NCBI GenBank assembly: GCA_965214775.1
Contig: OZ243974.1
Coordinates: forward strand, 1,120,001 to 1,184,000
DNA length: 64,000 nucleotides
Direction of reading: 5' to 3'
DNA from: Nitrosopumilus sp.
Lineage (GTDB): Archaea; Thermoproteota; Nitrososphaeria; Nitrososphaerales; Nitrosopumilaceae
Below are positions 1 through 10,723 of the stretch, piece after piece (positions within the stretch are counted from its first letter, which is position 1; each line of letters begins with the position of its first letter). The translations under genes were made by a program, and so were the position numbers. The notes below the pieces were generated by a model. It searched no databases. It saw only the letters and a program-made list of their open reading frames with translations, and was not told the origin of the DNA.

Positions 1-102
1 AACCACGTTGGCTCCAAGTTTTCCAAATTCAATTGCAGCAGCTCTGCCAATTCCAGACGATGCGCCGGTAATCAGAACAGTCTTGTTTTTGAAATCCGCC
101 AC
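1..102 (-). CDS. Short-chain dehydrogenase/reductase, N-terminus only (runs off the window)
   Basis: Manual translation from GTG at 102 gives VADFKNKTVLITGASSGIGRAAAIEFGKLGANVV, with the TGxxxGIG Rossmann motif. Not in the ORF track. Confidence 0.85.
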   Translation of the reverse strand, partial: MADFKNKTVLITGASSGIGRAAAIEFGKLGANVV

Positions 103-496
103 ACACTGACAAAATTATTTGGGGATAAAGCAGTTTCTGTTGGGTATTTTTTGCATAGAAACAGGGCTTGAGAGGCAAGTTATTCTCCTCCTCCTTCCAT
201 GGGGCAAACATAGAGCCACCGGCAGCTGGCAGCAGTCCCAACCGGAAGAAAACAGCGTTTTGACTGGATTTGCAAGCCCTGTGGCATTCAAACTGAATTG
301 ATATGTTCTTAAAACTCGTTTGGGATTTTTTTGCACTGCGGATTTCCACTGCATGATATACCTGACGGGGAATTTCTTTGATTTTGTCTGCGTATTCTTC
401 TGCTTGTGCATGTTCGTCTTGGATCAGTAAAGGGATTCAATAAGAGCAATCCCTTCCATACGGGGAAGCAAAAGTTCCCGAAGATCAAACTCATCA

Positions 497-606
497 TAAC
501 AGATCGATCCCTGGAAGTTCAGGCATGAATTTTTTGTCACCAATGAATGCCGATCAAATGGAATCTGTGCCAAGTCAGAAACGGCTTCCAGAGCCCGATC
601 AATTAC
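497..606 (-). mobile_element. MITE family A (~110 bp, IS66-like ends)
   Basis: Reverse complement is similar to 18982-19092, 9329-9438 and 42752-42862. Confidence 0.7.
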
Positions 607-1578
607 TAGACCTTATGCGTAATCGACTGGATCGAAATATTACGTTTGCAAGCTGACCATGCATGCAGGACCGGCAGCGTCATACGGCATGTGCAAAGAC
701 GGCAGAGGACGCCGCACCGCATGTCATGAGCCCGTCTGGCTGACAAAAACCATGGTAACGTGCGGCATCGTGTGGCGCCGCAGTGCGCTCCGTACCGCGA
801 TATCAGAACCCAAGCATGAGCTTCTTGTTCTGCTCATCCCACAGCGTCCTAAAGTTGGCAAGCCCGGCTGTCACCTGGAACTCCCGGTCGAAATCCTCGG
901 CGGTCCCGTCGTACGGGTCGCGCATCCGCTTGTACTGCTTTACCAGCCATATGGCATGCTCGACTGTCACTCTCTTGCTGCTTGTCCTCCTGTTCTGTGT
1001 ATGCTGTTTCTTTGTAAGTTTGCCCCCCTTTGGCTTCTTGTGGGGCTGCATGGATATGACCCCGGGATACATTTTTTTGATTCCAAGGTACCCAAGATCC
1101 GATAACAGTTTTACCTTCTCGTCATCGGGATGCTTCCTGTTGCTGCGCATCCTGGCAGTCAGGATTCCCAGCTCCGGGGGAGGGGCTGTCCCTTATCATG
1201 GTGAGGTCGTGCGTGCTTCCCGGAGCCGACTTGCTTGCGTATATTATCAGCCTGTCCTTGTTGGTCATTACCTGGACGTTGCGCGTAAAACTCTTCTTCT
1301 TGCCAGAGTACGCCCTCCTTTCTTGGCTCCCTGTCTGTGGGGCGCTGTATGTCTATGTGCGTGCCGTCAACGGCTACGGTCAGGTCGGGGACGATCTTCA
1401 TCAGATCCTCTATGGTGCATGTGTTTCGTATATTCTGCGACATTTTATCCGGCGTGGGCAGTATCTCAAGGAATATGATGTCAGAAAACTTGATGTACCT
1501 GCATACGGTGCTCTGGTCTATGCCAAAGAATGCCGCCAGCTGCTCCTATACTGACGATCATTGAAAATTTCGCCTTCT

Positions 1579-2565
1579 TTACACGCGGCGCTCAAGATAT
1601 TTGTAGATGTCAACTTTAATGGAACACGTCCTAAAGTATTCTGAGACGGCTCTTTTGAGGTGATCTGCCGTATCGTAAAAGGCAGATGTGACCAGCCTGT
1701 ACTTGGCATCCTTCCAGATTGGCTCTATGCCACTCAGCTCCGGCCTAGCTACCGGCAGGTACAGCAGGACAACGTCGGGATTTTTCTTCAGGTACCTGCG
1801 AACCCTTCCGGTCTTATGCTGTGATGCGTTGTCCATCACCATCAGTACCTTTCCCCACTTTTTGCGCGCCTGCTTGAGATAACGCACAAAGTTTATGCTG
1901 TTGAACTTGTCGTATGTGTGCATCAGCCTGGTTCCGTCGTCTGCAACCGTTCCGTATACCACGACGCGCTCCCTTCTGCCGGATCGTTGCACCTCGATCC
2001 TGTCCCCCACTGGCGACCAGAACTTTCTGCCGTCCCTTCCCGTACTGACGAATATCGACTCGTCCTGTACGGTTATCCTGAATCCGCGCCTTTTTGCAAG
2101 CCTAATCGTGTCTTTTGCCTCCCTTTGCCATCGTCTTACCTCCTTTGCGTCGGCAGCATTTGCCAGCTTGGTAGTTGACGTCTTTAGCGAGAATCCCATC
2201 GTGCGCAGGATTCTTCTGATGCTTCCAACGCTGTATGTGACATGCAGTTTGCGGCGCACCCAGTTGCGCATCTTCTTTGGGGTGAGCTTTTCCATCCTGC
2301 GCAGCCTCGTGGCGATCTTTTTTATCCTGCCGACTGGGACCTTTGGCTTTTTCCCCCTGTTGGGGGAGTCACGGAGACCGTCAACGCCGTCAAGCTCAAA
2401 CCTCTCAACCCACATCTGTACTGTACGCTGTGTCACGTCGGCAATCTCTGCGGTCTGTGCAGTGGTGTTGCCAAGCAGTACGGAGCGCACCGCTAGGATT
2501 CTGGTATAAACCCTGTTATCCTTTTCGACACGCATGGCATCCGTGAGGATTTTCGTCTTGTTCAT
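1579..2565 (-). CDS. IS630 transposase
   Basis: HTH N-terminus and QDES, MDNASQH and PELSGIE DDE motifs. The ORF-track start at 2595 lies in the inserted IS110 end, so ATG at 2565 is preferred. Confidence 0.9.
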   Translation of the reverse strand: MNKTKILTDAMRVEKDNRVYTRILAVRSVLLGNTTAQTAEIADVTQRTVQMWVERFELDGVDGLRDSPNRGKKPKVPVGRIKKIATRLRRMEKLTPKKMRNWVRRKLHVTYSVGSIRRILRTMGFSLKTSTTKLANAADAKEVRRWQREAKDTIRLAKRRGFRITVQDESIFVSTGRDGRKFWSPVGDRIEVQRSGRRERVVVYGTVADDGTRLMHTYDKFNSINFVRYLKQARKKWGKVLMVMDNASQHKTGRVRRYLKKNPDVVLLYLPVARPELSGIEPIWKDAKYRLVTSAFYDTADHLKRAVSEYFRTCSIKVDIYKYLERRV

Positions 2566-2705
2566 GTCAGAAGGGCCATGGCGGAGATCTCCCATATGAA
2601 ATCGTACCAGATCCTACCGTGGACCCTTGCCAGCGTGATGTTCCGAATCAGGACAATGTTGCTATGCGATGCATCCTCTTATACTTTCTCTGCGTGAGAG
2701 TCTTG

Positions 2706-3746
2706 TCTATCATACGAAAATTAGTTCCGCCTAAGATCAGGCGTACTTTGAAGGATTATTTTAGGCTGTACCGATCAAAAAACGTGAGGAAAAAATTGGA
2801 GGAAAAGTCGCTCCGGTACATAGAAAAGCAGAGGAAAAAGGGCGTGCCTGCAAAGCAGATAGCCCGGGAGCTGGGCATCAGCGACAGGTATGTCAGGAAG
2901 ATATGGGCCAGATTCCGCAGCTCCGGCACAGTCCTGCCACGGAGCGGGGCAGGAAGGCCCTGCATGGACACGGATCCCGTGGATGTGGAGGCGGTCCTTG
3001 ACGCATATGCGCGGATGCCGTCGGGTGTGGAGAGGCTGGCATTGCGCATGAGGGCCGCAGGCAGGCAGATAAGCTACCATGCAGTATACAGGATCATGAA
3101 GGCCGAGGGAATAACGGACGGCTCGCCTGCCAGACCCAGACAGCTCAAGTGGCTGCGCTATGAGCGCAAGTACTCCAATGCAATGTGGCACGTGGACTGG
3201 CACGAAATGAAGGATTCACGCCTAGAAAAACTCAATCTGGTGGCATATCTTGACGATTCCTCGCGGTGCATAACCGGATTTGGCGTCTTTGAGCGCGCGA
3301 CCTCGGAGAACGCAGTCCTGGTGCTGCGCAAGGCCATCAAAGAGTTCGGGACGCCGGCCCAGGTACTCTCGGACAACGGCAGCTGCTTTACGTCAGCCAG
3401 GCGCGGTACCCCAAGGGGCAGCTGGACGCCCACGCTGTTTGAGAACGAGCTGCTAGAGCACAGCATCGTCCTGCTCAACTCGCGTCCGCATCACCCCCAG
3501 ACCAACGGCAAGTTGGAGAGGTGGTTCAGAACGCTTGAGAAGGAGCTGACGCACTTTGAGAAGGTAGACGAGTTCATCGAGTTCTACAACGAGCACAGGA
3601 CGCACTGGTCGCTTGACATCAAGCGTGCAGAGACTCCCAGAATGGCGTTCCGGAGCCGGGAGGCCACAGAAGCGATCAGGAAAAGCGACCCCAAATGGAT
3701 GGAGAAGGATACTAATGAGGGGCGGAACTAATTTTCATATGAAACA
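2706..3746 (+). mobile_element. IS481-family element with 15-bp TSD
   Basis: TIRs TCTATCATACGAAAATTAGTTCCGCC and GGCGGAACTAATTTTCATATGAAACA. TGCGTGAGAGTCTTG occurs at 2691-2705 and 3747-3761. Confidence 0.9.
2784..3731 (+). CDS. IS481 transposase (rve integrase core)
   Basis: WHVD, LSDNGSCF and PQTNGKLER motifs. Confidence 0.92.
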   Translation: MRKKLEEKSLRYIEKQRKKGVPAKQIARELGISDRYVRKIWARFRSSGTVLPRSGAGRPCMDTDPVDVEAVLDAYARMPSGVERLALRMRAAGRQISYHAVYRIMKAEGITDGSPARPRQLKWLRYERKYSNAMWHVDWHEMKDSRLEKLNLVAYLDDSSRCITGFGVFERATSENAVLVLRKAIKEFGTPAQVLSDNGSCFTSARRGTPRGSWTPTLFENELLEHSIVLLNSRPHHPQTNGKLERWFRTLEKELTHFEKVDEFIEFYNEHRTHWSLDIKRAETPRMAFRSREATEAIRKSDPKWMEKDTNEGRN

Positions 3747-3934
3747 TGCGTGAGAGTCTTGCTCTGAGTGCGGTACTCTTCTCCGGTGGTCAGCATGTGC
3801 CAGATTATCTCCAGCATATGCCTTGCAACTGCAATCTTTGCCTTCTGCCATCCTCGTCTCTTTCTTATCCTTTCATATATAGAACCAAGTCTTGAGTCGT
3901 TTCGTACTGCTGTGGCCGAGTTGATCATGTTATC

Positions 3935-4122
3935 ACCTCCTTTTTGATCAAAATGCCTGATCCGGGCGGAATCTCCCATTCACCGTCTGCGCGGTATATT
4001 GCTTTCCGCCTGCTGTTACGAGTCAGTCTATAAAACACCCTTGTACATGGTAAGATCACATCGACTCTCAGGCCCAACGATAATTGTATATCACAGGATA
4101 CTGATAAGATTTCATATAGCGT
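3935..4122 (-). ncRNA. Putative IS110 bridge/seek RNA, copy 1
   Basis: Non-coding left end with two hairpins bearing internal loops, whose strands match the target and donor junction sequences (see findings). Confidence 0.65.
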
Positions 4123-4820
4123 CTATAAACCTTCACAAGACGTGTAATCAGGCGAAATTTTCAATGATCGTCAGTATAGATGAGGTTTCCGCGCTTGCGC
4201 ATCAGGGCCAGCAGGAAGGCGTGTCTGTAGGACAACTTGCACCGGTTTCCGGGCCCGTCGTCCTCGTCCTCAGAAAACAGGGGGGCACTCTGTATGCTTT
4301 TTGGCCTTCTCCGTATACAGGTTTAATATATATTCAAACTGACGCAGGTTCAGGGACGTGGTGGCCTGCAGGGATTCGCTACCGATTATGATGTCATCAA
4401 GCACCTCGAGCCTGTGCATGAACGCGGCGTTCTCTGCGGTATGCCTTTTGTCATTCCATGTTACAGGCCAGAACCCGCGCTCAAAGTCCAGCCTCTGGTT
4501 TAACTGCCCTATCTTGTCCTGGGCCTGCTCGTACATTTGCCTGTACTGTGCATTCTCCCTCCCTTGCTGCCTGGCCTCCCTCTTGTCCTGAATCTTCTCC
4601 TGCCTGTGCCTTTGCCTGTACTGCTCATTCGCTTTCCTCAGTTGCCGTATAAGCACGGTCTCGGACTTTGCCATCACTCCTGTTCGAGGATGGATCCCGG
4701 ATCTAAATCAACCGACTGAAAATAGTTGCAGTTTTGATCAAATATTTTGGACAATGCGAGGCGCTGCCTGCCAGCCTGATGCATGATCAGCTTGCAAACA
4801 GGATATTTCGATCCGGGCGA

Positions 4821-5306
4821 TTACGCATAAAGTCTATTATATTTTTTATAGAAATCGATTGCATCTTTGGTAAATAATACGATGTATCTACAGCCAATTT
4901 TTTCTGATACAATTCTAGCTAGTCCATTGCACCACATTAGTACATATTTTCCAAATCCTTTTCCTCGCAATCTTTTATCAATACAAAAATCAAGAATTAT
5001 CATGGAAGGAAAGAATGCACCATCACGAGTAGGAGCTCTCTTTTTTGGAACAATCTCATCTTTGTGAATGTTTGATGAAGCCAGAGTTACATAACCTATT
5101 GTTTTGTTTTTGTAATTAACAAGATATGTTGTACCCAAATGCGCCTTTTGATTCTTCAACGCTCTTTTTTCAATAAAGTTTTGTAAAAATTGAGAATCTT
5201 GACCTTTGTTATCTGTGCAATCAAGACATGGTTTAGTTTTTGAGTTTATTTGTGGAAAACTAAAAGCAGTTGTATCAATTACATCTTTTCTGGAAGAGCC
5301 ACTCAC
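4821..5306 (-). pseudogene. GNAT acetyltransferase (toxin-like), C-terminus cut by the IS5 TIR
   Basis: IGYVTL, CIDKRLRGKGFGK acetyl-CoA motif and AIDFYKKY; the last codons come from the IS end. Confidence 0.8.
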
Positions 5307-5357
5307 AAAATTGTGAAAGTATGCAGGTAATTATTTTTTGCTTTGCTGAGGAATTGG

Positions 5358-5495
5358 CTATGAGCAATTATTGCGATAAAATTCTTCAGATTCTGCCATG
5401 AATTGTCGTTCTTTTTTTGTAGATTTGCTTTTTTGATATTTATCAAAAGACTTTGCATTTTTATCCTTTAGAACTATAGGATCATTTGGATTCAT
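5358..5495 (-). CDS. 45-aa putative antitoxin upstream of the GNAT
   Basis: Manual translation: MNPNDPIVLKDKNAKSFDKYQKSKSTKKERQFMAESEEFYRNNCS. Same strand and AT-richness as the GNAT. Confidence 0.55.
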   Translation of the reverse strand: MNPNDPIVLKDKNAKSFDKYQKSKSTKKERQFMAESEEFYRNNCS

Positions 5496-5552
5496 TCCAA
5501 CATCGTCTCCAGTATAGAGGGACTTTCTATGCTCTTAAATTAAGCATTTCAT

Positions 5553-5674
5553 CAGTCTTCCCAAAAGTAACCCAAAAAACGGCTCCAAACCGTGAAACAG
5601 TTCAAGCCCAACTGCCTGCAGATCCGCATGTCACCTACTGCACCGCCGTGAGTTGGTTACTTCTGGGAAGACTG
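5553..5674. mobile_element. MITE family E (TIR CAGTCTTCCCA); other copies at 9723-9843, 30906-31005 and 62201-62320
   Basis: CAGTCTTCCCAAAAG...CTTCTGGGAAGACTG ends and a shared internal TGCAGATCC motif. Confidence 0.8.
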
Positions 5675-5686
5675 TATATGCTAGAA

Positions 5687-5820
5687 GACATATATGTTGG
5701 TAGACATATCATGGGATCTTGCCTCGATGGTATGGCTGATCAGTATCTTCATGATCATACTCCCACGTCGCATCCCCGTGAGGCACAAATATCCGCCGAC
5801 ATATATGTCAGTAGACATAT
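5687..5820. promoter_or_regulatory. Two 23-bp direct repeats with palindromic cores upstream of the ATPase (candidate operators)
   Basis: GACATATATGTTGGTAGACATAT (5687-5709) and GACATATATGTCAGTAGACATAT (5798-5820). Confidence 0.45.
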
Positions 5821-5844
5821 ATGATGATAAACATAGTGTAACGC

Positions 5845-7011
5845 ATGTCAGTGATTGGCAGGCCTCCGGAAGACCCCGTAGACAGGGAAGAGGAGGTCGG
5901 TAAGATCGTAGGTGCCATGACAGACCCAAAGACCAATGCAAATTATGCGCTTGTCGGACATAGAAGAATAGGCAAGTCAACCATACTAGCAAAGGTCAAA
6001 AGGATTCTAGATGAGAACAATCAGGTAATTATAGGATACGTCGATCTTGGCGAGTTCCGACATTCCCCAGTTGAGTTTGCAGAGACATTGACAGAAAGCC
6101 TGACAGAGTCATATTCCAAGACCCTTCCAAGAACTTCCAAGGTAATCCAGTCGATCACATCGGCAATATCTCAGATCAAGGAGATCAAGAGGCTGCGTGC
6201 CAGGTTCACTGCAAGTGTAGATGTGATGGGAAATCCAAAAATAGAGATCGACCCCCTTGTCAAGAGCAGAACAAAAGATCATGCAAAATCCCTCTTCAAT
6301 GTATTTGACTATGCAAATGAGCTGTCGCAGATATCAAAAAAGAGGGTACTGGTAATCATAGACGAGTTTCAGCACATTATAGACTACAGGAAGATGGAGG
6401 GGCTTGAGAGAATACATGACATACTCAAGACAATTATTGAAAAAAGAACCAACGTATCATTTGTGGTAAGCGGCTCTAGGGTTCATTACCTTCAAAACAT
6501 TCTGGGAGGGGGTACAAGTCCACTGTTTGGTCATTTTGTGATTCTTGACATAGAACCTTTGGAGAAAAAATACGCAATTGAGCTGTTTGCAAAGTCCAGC
6601 AGAGACCCGGCTAGTAGGGAAACCGCAGAGGCCGCATTTGAGGAGGTGGGAGGACATCCCTACTATCTTGTAATGCTTGCAGAGGGGAGAAAAAAAGACG
6701 AGTTGGTTCATGATGCATACATGCGGCTGCTTACGAGGCCGACTGGCGCGATATACCTGTATGTCAACTATGTCCTGACTGAGAACCTTGGAGCAAGCTA
6801 CAAAAGCACCAACTATCCCCCAATACTGGTGTCGCTTGCAATGGGAGCAAAACCAGTCTCTGAGATAGCAAGGGACGCACAAATCAGGATGACGGATTTG
6901 CCAAGACTGCTAAACACGCTGATCGAATATGACATCATAGGAAAATCAGGTAAAAAATACTTCATAGCAGACAAGGTGGTACGGGACTTTTTCTGCCAAG
7001 CGGGCGCGTAG
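5845..7011 (+). CDS. Archaeal-type AAA ATPase with C-terminal winged helix
   Basis: PVDREEE, Walker A GHRRIGKST, Walker B IIDEFQH, GGHPYY and a C-terminal HTH (PVSEIARDAQI). Confidence 0.88.
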   Translation: MSVIGRPPEDPVDREEEVGKIVGAMTDPKTNANYALVGHRRIGKSTILAKVKRILDENNQVIIGYVDLGEFRHSPVEFAETLTESLTESYSKTLPRTSKVIQSITSAISQIKEIKRLRARFTASVDVMGNPKIEIDPLVKSRTKDHAKSLFNVFDYANELSQISKKRVLVIIDEFQHIIDYRKMEGLERIHDILKTIIEKRTNVSFVVSGSRVHYLQNILGGGTSPLFGHFVILDIEPLEKKYAIELFAKSSRDPASRETAEAAFEEVGGHPYYLVMLAEGRKKDELVHDAYMRLLTRPTGAIYLYVNYVLTENLGASYKSTNYPPILVSLAMGAKPVSEIARDAQIRMTDLPRLLNTLIEYDIIGKSGKKYFIADKVVRDFFCQAGA

Positions 7012-7093
7012 GCCAACCCCTGGTGCGGACCCCAAAAAAGAAGGAACGATCAGCAATGCACACTTTTTTTAGTTTGGAGGTCGAATCACAAAT

Positions 7094-7256
7094 ATGATCA
7101 AGAAAATATAGAGTACACAGGACAAGATAGGGATGGTCATGAAGCATCTCAACACCAACATCGAAACAGCAGAGTTGTGTAGCCGCCACAACCTCTCCCC
7201 AAGGACGTTTTACCAGTGGAGGGAGCGCTTTTTGCAGGCCGGACGCGCATCGCTGT
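7094..7256 (+). pseudogene. IS3-family orfA remnant
   Basis: Manual translation MIKKI*STQDKIGMVMKHLNTNIETAELCSRHNLSPRTFYQWRERFLQAG: an HTH with an internal stop. Confidence 0.7.
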
Positions 7257-7258
7257 TA

Positions 7259-7346
7259 TAGTGCGTGCAGTTGAAAATGGAATATTTTTTTGGTGAAATA
7301 GGCACGATGTGTCAAAATCGTATTCCATTTTTTTATGTATTGACTA
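7259..7346. mobile_element. MITE family F; other copies at ~16499-16586, ~20182-20270 (reverse) and ~20388-20475
   Basis: Shared GTGCAGTTGAAAA...TGG(T/C)GAAATAGGCA...CCATTTTTT sequence. Confidence 0.8.
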
Positions 7347-7567
7347 CATCAGTATGTGGTCACGTCCCCTTGCTAGCTAGGCACGAAGATTACAATCATT
7401 CATGCTAATTTGTGCCTGACTGATGGGGGTAGGTGACCTCGTACCTTAATTCAGTCAAATGATCATTCTCTAGTCATGTTGGGAGATGAAGAATTAGACA
7501 GTGCCTAGAAAACAACAAGTATTTTCTCTTTTCTATGTATGTACAATTTTGTTTCATATGAAAATTG

Positions 7568-7684
7568 GTAATAGGATAGCCCTGCCTAGAGTTGGAGTCA
7601 CGCCCCTTGCCGGACATGCATGAAAATCACAACTGCAGGCAGATTCGTGCCTGATTACTGCCTAGGCAGGAGCTATCCTGTTAC
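7568..7684. mobile_element. MITE family B (IS66-like)
   Basis: GTAATAGG...CCTGTTAC ends; similar to 19181-19298 and 25859-25976. Confidence 0.85.
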
Positions 7685-7757
7685 AGCAGAAATAATTGAG
7701 GTTTTTTACGTGTAGTTATAACCTACTTTGACTCAAAGACTTCTGTCCGTTGCTATA
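7685..7757. mobile_element. MITE family C (IS630-type), truncated copy
   Basis: Matches the reverse complement of 10641-10723 and 59080-59162. Confidence 0.8.
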
Positions 7758-7912
7758 TAAGGTGTTACAAAACACCTAAACGTGAAATTGGTAGGAGAAT
7801 TGACGGTTAGCTATGACGGTGCTCTGGTTAAACCTTTGTCATTTGCCAATTATCTTTCACTAGACTTGGAAAAGATTTTAAGTCCTTTACTAATCCTTGG
7901 AGATCATAATTT

Positions 7913-9310
7913 GTGATTACAATGGATGCTTTAATTAAAAAGTCTACCAACTTGAACGGAAAAATACGAGTTCCTGGTTCTAAATCCTACACTCACAGAG
8001 TGATTGCAGCTGCCTCTCTCTATGGAAGCAATACATTAATTCGAAACCCGTCAAACTCTGATGCAAACGATGCCATGATTAAAGCATGTAGACAATTTGG
8101 CGCCTCTGTTGAATGGGATGGAAACAATATCAGGGTCAAGGGCGTAAAGGGTCATCCTACTCCGGACAAGCCCATTGATGTTGGTAATTCTGGAACTGCT
8201 ATGAGAATTGCAGTGGCTTTGGCGAGCTTGGCAAAAGGCAACTTGATAATAACAGGTGATCCTTCTTTACAAAACAGACCCACCAGGCCTTTGCTTGACG
8301 CTTTAAGGACCCTGGGTGTTGATTTGACTGGAATTTGTAAACAGACTGATGACGGCATTCAAGAATTTGCTCCAATTACAATCAATGCAACCGGTAGTGT
8401 AAGGGGCGGAAAAGTAGAGATATCTTGTAAAGAAAGTTCCCAATATCTGACTGCATTACTACTTGTTGGCAACTTTGCACAAAACGATGTTGAAATTACA
8501 GTAGCAGACACTGTTGTTTCTAAACCATATGTTAGAATGACTCTGGAAGTATTGCGTAAATTTGGACTAGACATCCGTGCTTCAGACGATTTAATGACAT
8601 ACAAAATCAAATCACAACAAGACTATCACAAGCCAGACAATTATGACATACCTGGGGATTATTCACAAGCCGCATTCCCGTTGGCAGCCGCATGCCTGGT
8701 CAATTCCGACATTAGAGTAAAAGGATTGGATCCAAATGATCAACAAGGCGATAAGATTATTGTGGATATTCTTAGGAGAATGGGTGCAATAATTGAAGAA
8801 GACGGTGATGACCTTGTTGTAAAAGGATCATTTGATCTGCGTGGAATTGAGGTTGATCTGATTGATGCCCCTGACCTATTTCCCGTACTGTCTGTATTGG
8901 GAATTTATGCTAACGGAAAAATGCGGTTGTACAACATGCCGCAAATTCGCTCCAAGGAGACTGATAGAATTGCAGTAATTGAACGCGAGTTGACAAAATA
9001 CGGAGTTAGAATAGAATCAAAGCATGATGAAATGACTGTATACCAGACTGACTTGCCTGAAAAAGAGTACGTGTTTAGTGCAAAAGGTGATCAGGGAGTG
9101 ACTGACCACAGAGTTGCCATGGCGTTATCCTTAATTGGCATTCGTAGCGGCTGTTCTGTCATTAAAGAAGCACACAAAATCGACGTTTCATATCCTGATT
9201 ATCTAGATGACATGGAGAGTATTGGAGTCAACATAGACAGAACGGGCTCAGAGACACCGTCAATTGATGCCAAACCAAAAAATGAAGTTACTCCCAATCT
9301 GGAAATGTGA
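7913..9310 (+). CDS. aroA: 3-phosphoshikimate 1-carboxyvinyltransferase (EPSP synthase)
   Basis: PGSKSYTHR, DVGNSGTAMR, SSQYLTALL, PGDYSQA, RSKETDR and DHRVAMA motifs. Confidence 0.92.
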   Translation: MITMDALIKKSTNLNGKIRVPGSKSYTHRVIAAASLYGSNTLIRNPSNSDANDAMIKACRQFGASVEWDGNNIRVKGVKGHPTPDKPIDVGNSGTAMRIAVALASLAKGNLIITGDPSLQNRPTRPLLDALRTLGVDLTGICKQTDDGIQEFAPITINATGSVRGGKVEISCKESSQYLTALLLVGNFAQNDVEITVADTVVSKPYVRMTLEVLRKFGLDIRASDDLMTYKIKSQQDYHKPDNYDIPGDYSQAAFPLAAACLVNSDIRVKGLDPNDQQGDKIIVDILRRMGAIIEEDGDDLVVKGSFDLRGIEVDLIDAPDLFPVLSVLGIYANGKMRLYNMPQIRSKETDRIAVIERELTKYGVRIESKHDEMTVYQTDLPEKEYVFSAKGDQGVTDHRVAMALSLIGIRSGCSVIKEAHKIDVSYPDYLDDMESIGVNIDRTGSETPSIDAKPKNEVTPNLEM

Positions 9311-9865: not shown

Positions 9866-10045
9866 ACGCTATATGAAATCTTATCCGTATCCTGTGATAT
9901 ACAATTACCGTTGGGCCTGAGAGTCGATTGGAACTTACCATGTACAAGGGTGTCTTACAGACTGACTCGCAACAGCAGGCGGAAAGCAATATACCGCGCA
10001 GACGGTGAATGGGAGATTCCGCCCGGATCAGGCATTTTGATCAAA
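9866..10045 (+). ncRNA. Putative IS110 bridge/seek RNA, copy 2
   Basis: Same two-hairpin architecture as copy 1, with different target-loop bases. Confidence 0.65.
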
Positions 10046-10059
10046 AAGGAGGTGATAAC

Positions 10060-10640
10060 ATGATCAACGTAGGAATAGACGTACACAAAAAGACATGCGT
10101 TGCGGCAGTAAAGGACGACTCGGGCAAGCTGCTTGAGCGGTCCACGTTTGAGAACAACGTTTTGGCAACAACGAATTTTGCAACAAACCTCAAAAAGGCA
10201 TATCCGGGACAGCTGCCAATCAGGGCAGTATGCGAGTCCACTGACAACTACTGGATTATCGTACACGACACGCTTGAGGACTGCGGGATAGACACCGTGC
10301 TGGTACATCCGGCAAAGGTCAAGGTGATAGCGCACGCCAAGATAAAGGACGACCGCGTGGACGCAAATATACTTGCCGACCTGTTCAGAGCAGACATGCT
10401 GCCAGAGTCGTTTGTGCCTGACAAGCACTACAGGGATCTCAGAATGCTGGGCAGGACCAGAACCGGCAAGACGTCAGAAGCCACCAGGTGCAAGAACAAG
10501 ATACATGCCATACTTGCAAAGTATGACTATGATCTGCACACACACGGCACGTTTACGATTTCTGCCATACAACACATCCAAGACGGGATAAGGATGCCAG
10601 GGATTGACTCGGCAACAGTCCAGATGTACCTTGACGACAC
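10060..10640 (+). pseudogene. IS110 DEDD recombinase, N-terminal half, truncated by MITE C
   Basis: VGIDVHK, CEST and KIKDDRVDA motifs; SD-like AGGAGGTGA just upstream. Confidence 0.9.
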
Positions 10641-10723
10641 TATAGCAACGGGCAGAAGTCTTTGAGTCAAAGTAGGTCATAACTACACGTAAAAAACCTC
10701 AATTATTTCTGCTCGTTGCTATA
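10641..10723. mobile_element. MITE family C (IS630-type)
   Basis: TATAGCAACG...CGTTGCTATA ends, shared with the IS630 at 29624-30729. Confidence 0.85.

Follow-up and report, generated by a model that had tools for sequence, protein, structure and literature searches.

A recombinase-less IS110-family element in a Nitrosopumilus genome with a predicted bridge RNA that matches its own insertion site

The DNA analysed here is a 64,000-nt stretch of the genome of Nitrosopumilus sp. (assembly GCA_965214775.1, contig OZ243974.1, positions 1,120,001-1,184,000 of the forward strand), which is referred to as the window and in which positions are counted from the first nucleotide. In the Rfam clan competition, the archaeal models for small- and large-subunit ribosomal RNA ranked first (1459 and 1117 bits, respectively), identifying the genome as archaeal. 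A foreign insert, bordered on either side by the core dinucleotide CT (2589-2590 and 4123-4124), occupies positions 2591-4122, and sequence comparisons support its identification as an internal-deletion derivative, lacking the recombinase gene, of a 1334-bp insertion sequence (IS) of the IS110 family. This mini element carries a predicted bridge-RNA gene in its non-coding end, and the relationship between this RNA and the insertion site is the subject of the present analysis. Subtraction of a nested 1042-bp IS481-like IS and a 14-bp duplication leaves 476 bp, and an uninterrupted 476-bp twin is located at genome positions 181547-182022. The deletion junction of the window copy contains an 8-nt microhomology (3922-3929), and the remnant open reading frames (ORFs; 66-83 aa) of the mini elements matched no Pfam family. 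These data agree with a first-pass annotation of the window, which had described a recombinase-less element of about 476 bp.

The mini element has entered an IS630-like transposase gene (DDE_3, 6.6e-22; NF033545, 181.9 bits) downstream of its TATA-like TTTATA but ahead of its ATG, and thus in the leader of another transposon, as had been noted in the first pass. On the minus strand, the site reads TTTATAG/ATCTCCGCCATGGCCCTTCTGAC-ATG (a slash marks the junction here and below), with TTTATA located 30 nt ahead of the likely start codon. In archaea, a TATA box is typically centred about 27 nt upstream of a leaderless start, and we read the target as the putative TATA box and leader of the IS630-like gene. 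The insertion separates the TTTATAG box (4124-4129) from its gene; the box now lies 3 nt before the element and faces the bridge-RNA gene, which may plausibly have captured the IS630-like promoter.

The empty site was reconstructed by joining both flanks by their coordinates, and the genome was then searched with it. Six IS630-like paralogues run uninterrupted across the junction with 96.6-97.5% identity, reading GGCGGAGATCT/ATAAACC with one CT only, and the previously proposed empty site, GGAGAT-CT-ATAAA, was thereby recovered. A seventh, diverged IS630-like copy reads GGAGATC/CATAAACC. The core CT, which is single in the six empty paralogues, is present at both junctions of the filled site, and there is no further duplication. 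DNA contigs of four runs contain the joints 2587 to 4122 (empty IS630-like site) and 2706 to 3763 (mini element without the nested IS); both are accounted for by the genome's own paralogues and are not independent evidence of mobility.

More than 20 copies of the family were found in the genome by BLAST searches with both element ends. Among the 22 copies examined that bear a left end (LE), three are full-length (1334 bp) and carry an intact 359-aa ORF. Their left end measures 197 nt and their right end (RE) 57 nt, and the predicted RNA precedes the recombinase gene. The 359-aa protein contains PF01548 (DEDD_Tnp_IS110; 6.3e-28) followed by PF02371 (Transposase_20; 4.9e-23), scores 248.6 bits on NF033542 (NCBIfam 'IS110 family RNA-guided transposase'; cut-off, 140 bits), and matches the IS621 and ISCro4 chains with E values of 4e-12 and 6e-12, respectively; the D/E/D/D/S positions coincide in these alignments. 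For the IS621 chain 8wt6_A, phmmer placed GIDvhK opposite GIDTAK, cEST with iEAT, DDrvDA with TDTVDA, and rrDSad with RYESGS; we take these aligned columns to be the catalytic ones. Searches against plasmids by tblastn returned generic 'IS110 family transposase' labels only, the best match being a haloarchaeal sequence with 38.5% identity.

Two types of internal deletion were identified. Type A (the window copy, its twin at 181547, and the copies at 2787936 and 808415) lacks element positions 205-1048, which leaves 476-482 bp with an 8-nt microhomology at the junction, and type B (three copies) lacks positions 385-1224, which leaves 485 bp with a 6-nt microhomology. In both types the upstream non-coding end (194-197 nt) is complete, and no less than 110 nt remain at the opposite end. 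Other copies, one of them inside the window, are truncated at their 3' ends. With no transposase, both ends kept, several copies of one deletion at different sites, and intact partners in the same genome, the mini elements can be regarded as non-autonomous derivatives resembling miniature inverted-repeat transposable elements (MITEs), which would depend on these partners for movement.

On the sense strand, the non-coding end comprises, in order, the terminal ACGC, a 10-nt sub-terminal repeat, a small hairpin, and two stem-closed internal loops, which are predicted to bind the target (loop 1) and the donor (loop 2; Table 1). All strings quoted in the first-pass annotation are present in the sequence, including the stem pairs GAGTC (4020-4024) with GACTC (4063-4067) and GGCGGAA (3965-3971) with TTCCGCC (4004-4010). 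Three helices were evaluated in a 23-sequence alignment of three subfamilies, from which the outer stem of the donor loop was excluded because MAFFT had offset the divergent rows by one column. In these helices, 97.7% of the cells are paired, as opposed to 27-41% when the partners are slid by 1-3 columns. One pair per helix is altered on both sides (U-A to C-G, A-U to G-C, and A-U to G-C; 3 of 15 pairs), representing few independent compensatory events, and near-invariant G.U pairs occur in 22, 23, and 21 of the 23 rows. As the three kept G.U pairs are mismatches on the opposite strand, the sense strand appears to be the RNA. RNAalifold recovered three of the four helices from a 22-copy alignment, missing the outer stem of the donor loop (one-column offset). 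In the aligned non-coding ends, the guide columns have a mean entropy of 1.03 and 1.08 bits, compared with 0.16 for the rest. When 151 genomes of the genus were searched with a covariance model derived from the aligned ends, the RNA was detected in 11, including this one, and the matches lie upstream of the recombinase ORF. Taken with the comparison of guides and flanks described below, a bridge RNA is very likely to be encoded by the retained end.

In the window copy, CTATAAA (4028-4034) is identical to the flank at 4123-4129 (7/7), and AGATCAC (4053-4059) agrees with AGATCTC of the other flank at six of seven positions. For the comparison among copies, the 3' guide was aligned with the 7 nt just upstream of each element, the last two of which are the invariant AG core and were excluded from the variable positions. 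In this genome, the match is 7/7 in 11 and 6/7 in 9 of the 22 copies, and the guide classes TTTATAG, CTTATAG, CTTACAG, TCAGTAG, CAAACAG, and GTATGAG are each paired with their own flank. When copies with near-identical 25-nt flanks were collapsed to 16 sites, 66 of 80 variable positions matched (shuffled mean, 32.6), a value reached in none of 100,000 shuffles. The covariation of loop and flank that the first pass had proposed as a check is therefore present. Guides found in other genomes, namely GCATAAG, TAGTTAG, TACACAG, GCAACAG, TTGACAG, TTCACAG, and TTGATAG, likewise equal their own flanks. In the pooled data for nine genomes of the genus (40 copies collapsed to 33 distinct sites, leaving out the four copies of genome G002), 17 sites match at 7/7, 12 at 6/7, 2 at 5/7, 1 at 4/7, and 1 at 3/7. 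In total, 143 of 165 variable positions match (shuffled mean, 68.1; 0/200,000 shuffles as high), and with one row for each of the 16 distinct guides the figure is 70 of 80 (shuffled mean, 30.1; 0/200,000); because copies within a genome are related, these shuffle tests overstate independence and the figures are not probabilities. That 16 guide variants track their own flanks is not a phylogenetic artefact. In the four G002 copies, the 3' guide matches at 7/7 each, including an A/G difference between copies that is matched in the flanks.

The 5' tract of loop 1 corresponds, as reverse complement, to AG and the five nucleotides that follow the far end of the element. Its agreement with the flank is weaker: the 11 copies with both ends in this genome match at 7, 7, 6, 6, 6, 6, 5, 5, 4, 3, and 3 of 7 positions, and over nine distinct pairs 28 of 45 positions match (shuffled mean, 22.0; 2,363/100,000 shuffles as high). 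These counts cover copies with a located right end, as the right ends of the divergent 'D' subfamily (five copies, about 68% identity) and of several truncated copies were not found. The 5' guide matches at 7/7 in two G002 copies. The poor cases are not random and are instructive: one copy abuts another element, and two have a downstream flank that fits the guide of another subfamily. Such cross-fitting is also seen upstream: the copy at 2169388 has a flank of the TCAGTAG class and a CTTATAG guide of its own (3/7), and in the copies at 2633347-2634799 and 2749895-2751228, too, a flank fits the guide of another subfamily better than their own (e.g. downstream AGATCTC vs the complement of the own guide, AGTTCCA; 4/7). 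These flanks may point either to guiding by the RNA of another copy or to recombination between copies. In genomes G153 and G154 (loci L051, L052, L062, L063, and L069; five copies), the 5' strand fits the downstream flank at 5/8 contiguous positions, and the guide GGGUUACU fits AGAACCC at 7/7 when one A is bulged between the core-pairing CU and the rest, which, in this post hoc register, would make it a discontinuous guide. In G161, the 5' strand fits at 8/8 only with the register moved by one. The bulged and shifted readings were made post hoc and are excluded from the counts. The second family copy in the window (9866-10642, plus strand) consists of the 5' 777 bp only, with a truncated ORF of 201 aa; it has the guides CTTACAG and UGGAACU, the former agreeing at 6/7 with the upstream flank ATTACAG.

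In the donor loop, the minus strand of 3973-3979 reads ATGGGAG and is identical to the far end of the element plus the core (7/7), as the first pass had pointed out. In every subfamily, AUGGGAG corresponds to the terminal five bases of the element followed by AG; being invariant, it cannot covary. The opposite donor strand, already described as weak in the first pass, does not complement the core and the first element bases. A trinucleotide two bases past the outer stem does complement element positions 3-5, and it covaries with them in 40 of 41 copies (AGC with ACGCT; AAC or GAC with ACGTT; GGU or GGC with ACGCC). Since its register was picked post hoc, this possible 3-nt donor contact is counted as a lead. 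Discontinuous, weaker pairing on one donor side has also been described for IS621 (in PMC11208160).

Table 1. Features of the mini element, its predicted bridge RNA, and the insertion site in the window
Feature	Position	Strand	Remarks
Host IS630-like transposase gene	1579..2565	-	Likely start ATG at 2565; host element resumes at 4125-4179
Target half GGAGAT + core CT	2583..2590	+	In sense orientation AG + ATCTCC, downstream flank
IS110 derivative (mini element)	2591-4122	-	Sense strand minus; 1532 bp including nested IS
3' end of mini element (RE side)	2591..2706	-	Terminates in ...CATATGGG
Sub-terminal inverted repeat, RE side	2594-2603		ATATGAAATC
Nested IS481-like IS	2707..3748	+	Outside the IS110 derivative proper; rve-domain transposase ORF ending at 3731
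Recombinase gene remnant	3749..3928	-	ATG at 3928; three N-terminal codons joined to C-terminal tail; without catalytic domain
Non-coding 5' end (LE) with predicted bridge-RNA gene	3929..4122	-	194 nt
Donor-binding loop (loop 2, predicted)	3965..4010	-	Outer stem GGCGGAA/UUCCGCC, 4004-4010 with 3965-3971
Loop 2, 3' guide AUGGGAG	3973-3979	-	Equals RE end + core
Loop 2, inner hairpin UACCG...CGGUG	3981-3996	-	
Loop 2, 5' strand with covarying AGC	4001-4003	-	
Target-binding loop (loop 1, predicted)	4020..4067	-	Outer stem GAGUCG/UGACUC, 4062-4067 with 4020-4025
Loop 1, 3' guide UUUAUAG	4028-4034	-	
Loop 1, inner hairpin UACC...GGUG	4036-4052	-	
Loop 1, 5' guide GUGAUCU	4053-4059	-	
Sub-terminal inverted repeat, LE side	4108-4117		
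Core CT + target half ATAAA	4123..4129	+	Minus strand TTTATAG, TATA-like box of IS630-like transposase gene
Predicted target sequence of the window copy's RNA			TTTATAGATCTC; also given as TTTATAGATCTCC
Site string of the empty paralogues (six copies)			GGAGATCT/ATAAA

The nested IS481-like IS is bounded by the 14-bp duplication GCGTGAGAGTCTTG (2693-2706 and 3749-3762); its transposase matches rve (4e-13) and scores 184 bits on NF033577, below the cut-off of that model. At least eight copies with 99.7-100% identity are present in the genome, and this IS has therefore been recently active. Two adjacent short ORFs of the window (803-1443, minus strand) probably represent a broken IS5/IS4-like transposase gene; one of them (115 aa) matches the C-terminal half of DDE_Tnp_4 (9.3e-11).

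Several observations weigh against the bridge-RNA reading of the retained end. Folding of the minus strand, which the first pass had put forward as a check (for 3935-4122), gave a minimum free energy (MFE) of -46.6 kcal/mol for the single sense sequence, no better than shuffled sequences (z -0.05), and the single-sequence MFE structure pairs the two guides with each other. Folding energy alone does not discriminate; the predicted fold rests on conservation and covariation. No Rfam family was found over the element in a scan of window positions 1-8000 with E values up to 1 (the only match in this region, a miRNA model at 7354-7442, was judged to be due to chance), and the bridge RNA is predicted from DNA sequence. 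The 5'-guide signal is modest in this genome, with 5 of the 11 two-ended copies at 5/7 or below (3, 5, 3, 4, and 5), two copies fit their own 3' guide poorly (3/7 and 4/7), and the second donor strand fits over 3 nt only. The flank identities of the loops might in principle be due to chance, or to flank sequence having been copied into the element by segmental duplication: within about 190 nt, a match of 7/7 together with one of 6/7 is not compelling alone (by our arithmetic, a single 7-mer match has a value of about 0.02 on uniform odds and is weak evidence), and many copies lie in repeats. However, the 16 distinct guides of the nine genomes track their own flanks (70/80 vs 30.1), and the matching tract holds a fixed position in a conserved fold, so that such an origin is scarcely credible. 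It is likewise very improbable that the functional RNA is produced from the plus strand, e.g. as an ISPpu9-like antisense regulator of the recombinase leader, with flank matches of some other function. For ISPpu9 and ISPpu10, antisense small RNAs (sRNAs) that cover the leader have been reported (PMC12288879), the DNA stems are symmetric, and the plus strand folds too (-39.9 kcal/mol, z -0.27). On that strand, however, the three near-invariant G.U pairs turn into A.C mismatches, and the loop order (donor, target) and guide polarity (core at the 5' end) would be unlike those of every described bridge or seek RNA, whereas both match IS621 on the minus strand; the covariation with the flanks has no role for an antisense regulator.

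Taking the retained end as a bridge-RNA gene, the following mechanism can be proposed. A deletion between 8-nt repeats removed positions 205-1048 and with them nearly the whole recombinase gene, and both ends and the 194-nt upstream end were kept. The latter would be transcribed in the same sense as the lost gene into an RNA with a 5' hairpin, a target loop, and a donor loop. The 3' strand of loop 1, UUUAUAG, identical to the upstream flank plus core, would bind the bottom DNA strand. The corresponding strand of loop 2, AUGGGAG, repeats the far end and the core, and the 5' AGC would complement element positions 3-5. By analogy with IS621 (PMC11208160; PMC13626964), the target would be recognized by loop 1 of the recombinase-bound RNA, and the ends of the element, joined in an excised circle, by loop 2; a recombinase tetramer together with the RNA would synapse the circle junction ...CATATGGG-AG-ACGCTATATG... 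with TTTAT-AG-ATCTC. Strand exchange at the AG/CT core would then lead to insertion in which nothing but the shared core is duplicated. For the mini elements, the enzyme would come from one of the three intact 359-aa copies elsewhere in the genome. On balance, we consider it probable that the mini element is a guide-carrying deletion derivative of this kind, with a bridge RNA of its own and the enzyme supplied from intact copies.

Mobilization of the mini elements in trans, taken by itself, is fairly likely. It is suggested by the presence of copies with the same junction at different sites that have empty paralogues, together with three intact recombinase genes. The seven mini elements of the two deletion types are found at different sites, for which 7, 5, and 12 empty paralogues were identified. 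Type B, with one junction, resides in two unrelated repeat families with 7 and 5 empty paralogues, respectively, one of which is an IS5-like element with the insertion 45 nt inside its end; type A resides in the IS630-like leader and, at 2787936, in a site of this IS5-like family, the latter copy being 99% identical to the window copy. The flanks of the mini elements agree with the guides that these carry themselves, whereas they do not fit the guides found in the intact copies (TCAGTAG or TCCGTAG; CGGAACU or UGGAACU), and it is plausible that each mini element would use its own RNA. In bacterial experiments, the bridge or seek RNA works in trans (PMC11208160; PMC11187229), and for ISEc21 an artificial mini-IS consisting of only the ends was mobilized with RNA and transposase supplied in trans (PMC11187229); by analogy, supply in trans would be feasible for the mini elements.

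The alternative is that the bridge-RNA gene is real and the mini elements are immobile relics, deleted in place or carried along in the copying of a host IS or of a larger segment, which never transposed as such. This explanation draws on several points that count against mobilization in trans. The 300-nt flanks of the window copy and its twin are 99.7% identical, compared with 96.6-97.5% to the six other IS630-like copies, as expected if a composite was copied; one of the two was therefore probably copied with the host IS, and direct insertion of the window copy is no more likely than its arrival within an IS630-like composite that was duplicated. A third IS630-like copy (c1252185) has a non-deleted, 3'-truncated element at the same site, and the deletion may therefore have occurred in place. 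Both deletions lie between short repeats of 6-8 nt and could recur, gene conversion could spread a deletion without transposition, and the type-B copies at 2726224 and 2784518 have both flanks in common. In addition, the guides of the intact copies differ from those of the mini elements, and no intact element with the guides of the mini elements survives. However, the occurrence of the type-B junction in unrelated repeat families and of a type-A copy at a non-IS630 site does not fit relics readily; transposition is more parsimonious than the same deletion arising independently at three or more sites, and the flanks of each mini element fit its own guides rather than those of intact copies. We therefore regard the relic explanation as unlikely and mobilization in trans as the better account of the mini elements.

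Most targets of the family belong to other mobile elements or adjoin them. Only 5 nt separate the end of the intact copy at 2030286 from the terminus of an IS630-like element that it lies outside of (G000, 2031619-2031625), type-B mini elements are located 45-55 nt inside the ends of two other repeat families, and the targets in G002 share the repeat CTATAG[T/C]GA.... At locus L005 (G000, 2787936-2789735), a type-A mini element ends exactly at position 96 of the bridge-RNA gene of another mini element. The junction directly follows the DNA copy of the 3' guide, TTTATAG, so that the guide-coding DNA mimics the left target half, and the arrangement looks like recombination at a half-site. The second mini element at this locus contains the same nested IS481-like IS as the window copy and lacks its far end.

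Features of both groups of the IS110 family are combined in these elements. As described for IS621 and the IS110 group (Durrant et al. 2024, PMC11208160; Hiraizumi et al. 2024; Nature 2026, PMC13626964), the recombinase consists of DEDD and Tnp domains, and the RNA gene lies upstream, in the same sense, in a long non-coding end. Further features that IS621 is described to share are the target loop preceding the donor loop, the guide polarity (5' strand ...CU, 3' strand ...AG), a 2-nt core without other duplication, and poor pairing of one donor strand. In contrast to the published account of IS621, the guide that would pair with the top strand is on the 5' side and the bottom-strand binder on the 3' side; because of this reversed guide order, the core reads AG and not CT in the recombinase orientation, and the 5' guide reads the flank of the far end. 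The longer and stronger guides are the 3' ones here, again unlike those described for IS621, and the host is an archaeon whose recombinase resembles that of IS621 only at an E value of 4e-12. An AG core in the transposase orientation has also been described for ISPpu9, which is placed in the IS110 group. Sub-terminal inverted repeats of 9-10 bp were found in six of the seven elements examined (7 bp in one); their sequences vary by subfamily and are matched between the two ends (ATATGAAATC, ATACGAAATC, and CCATGTGTT). Repeats of 7-17 bp are given as a hallmark of the IS1111 group in PMC11208160, as opposed to 2-3 bp in the IS110 group. The present family therefore departs from the IS110 group, as portrayed there, in guide order and repeat length and agrees with it in having a long left end, a short right end, and an upstream RNA.

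Comparable mixtures of agreement and difference are seen with other elements. In the account of Siddiquee et al. 2024 (PMC11187229), ISEc21 (IS110 family) has an upstream non-coding RNA, the seekRNA, that matches both target strands and also targets another IS (an IS3-family transposase gene); there, the bottom-strand match precedes the top-strand match, the reverse of the order found here. When ISEc21 with its flanks (locus L046) was analysed as a control, the tract identical to the left flank was indeed located before the tract complementary to the right flank, CCCUGGAC. Conversely, the IS1111-group elements ISEc11, ISKpn4, and ISPa11, as presented in PMC11187229, have the top-strand complement 5' of the bottom-strand match, as here, and the sub-terminal repeats found here fall into the 7-17-bp range of that group; the IS1111 elements are described with the RNA downstream of the transposase gene in a long right end, whereas the right end here is 57 nt and the RNA is upstream. 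The layout thus does not fit the published two-group description and is not claimed as unseen: a 2026 preprint presents 86 structural models of bridge RNAs, many of them unlike IS621. Archaeal IS110 recombinases are known (662 in one survey).

Our literature search on natural transposase-less elements derived from the IS110 family found one only, the MITEPpu9/ssr9 module of ISPpu9 in Pseudomonas putida, and the search on archaeal IS110 elements and bridge RNAs found no description of the present family among the papers listed; supplementary tables and lists may hold relevant elements in both cases. According to Pares-Guillen et al. 2025 (PMC12288879), MITEPpu9 is small and transposase-less, with IS110-family ends, an AG core, and a gene for an sRNA. 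Several copies exist, circles are formed, and the IS transposase has been proposed to act on it in trans. It differs from the present elements in that Ssr9 is described as a regulator complementary to an antisense RNA that is dispensable for transposition, and not shown to be a guide, and in that the module is a separate unit beside the IS, in a bacterium, rather than an internal-deletion derivative. What is probably new is an archaeal deletion derivative in which a predicted bridge RNA fitting the site of insertion has been retained, and which occurs in several copies and two deletion types; the mechanism as such is known.

Bridge RNAs are mainly known from bacterial elements in which enzyme and RNA are encoded together, and the present family offers a natural archaeal case with unusually clean evidence inside the genome: dozens of copies, differing guides that match their own flanks, empty sites, and recombinase-less carriers of guides. 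If the mini elements move with the help of the RNA that they encode, the guide modules could parasitize the recombinase, evolving and spreading in this way, which bears on the diversification of target specificity and on the counting of such systems. Bridge RNAs have been mined on a large scale, but the filter of the 2026 preprint retains only loci with an adjacent recombinase, and surveys with this requirement would miss the mini elements. The small 359-aa archaeal recombinase, the core RNA of about 120 nt, and the natural guide variants form a ready set for studies of specificity, and the proposal that the RNA has moved from one element end to the other can be put to a concrete test on the mixed IS110/IS1111 features.

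In a broader and more tentative interpretation, which we hold possible but rather doubtful as a whole, guide and enzyme have become separated in nature in this archaeal lineage: mini elements with reprogrammed bridge RNAs would use the few intact recombinases and steer the whole family to new sites, mainly TATA-box and leader regions and the ends of other IS elements, and the family would be intermediate between IS110 and IS1111. If true, guide modules would diversify independently (16 guide variants were found in the genus), and insertion would silence the transposase gene of the victim and set the victim's promoter before the bridge-RNA gene. The family itself would then represent an evolutionary intermediate, with the RNA upstream of the recombinase gene together with the IS1111-type guide order and long sub-terminal repeats.

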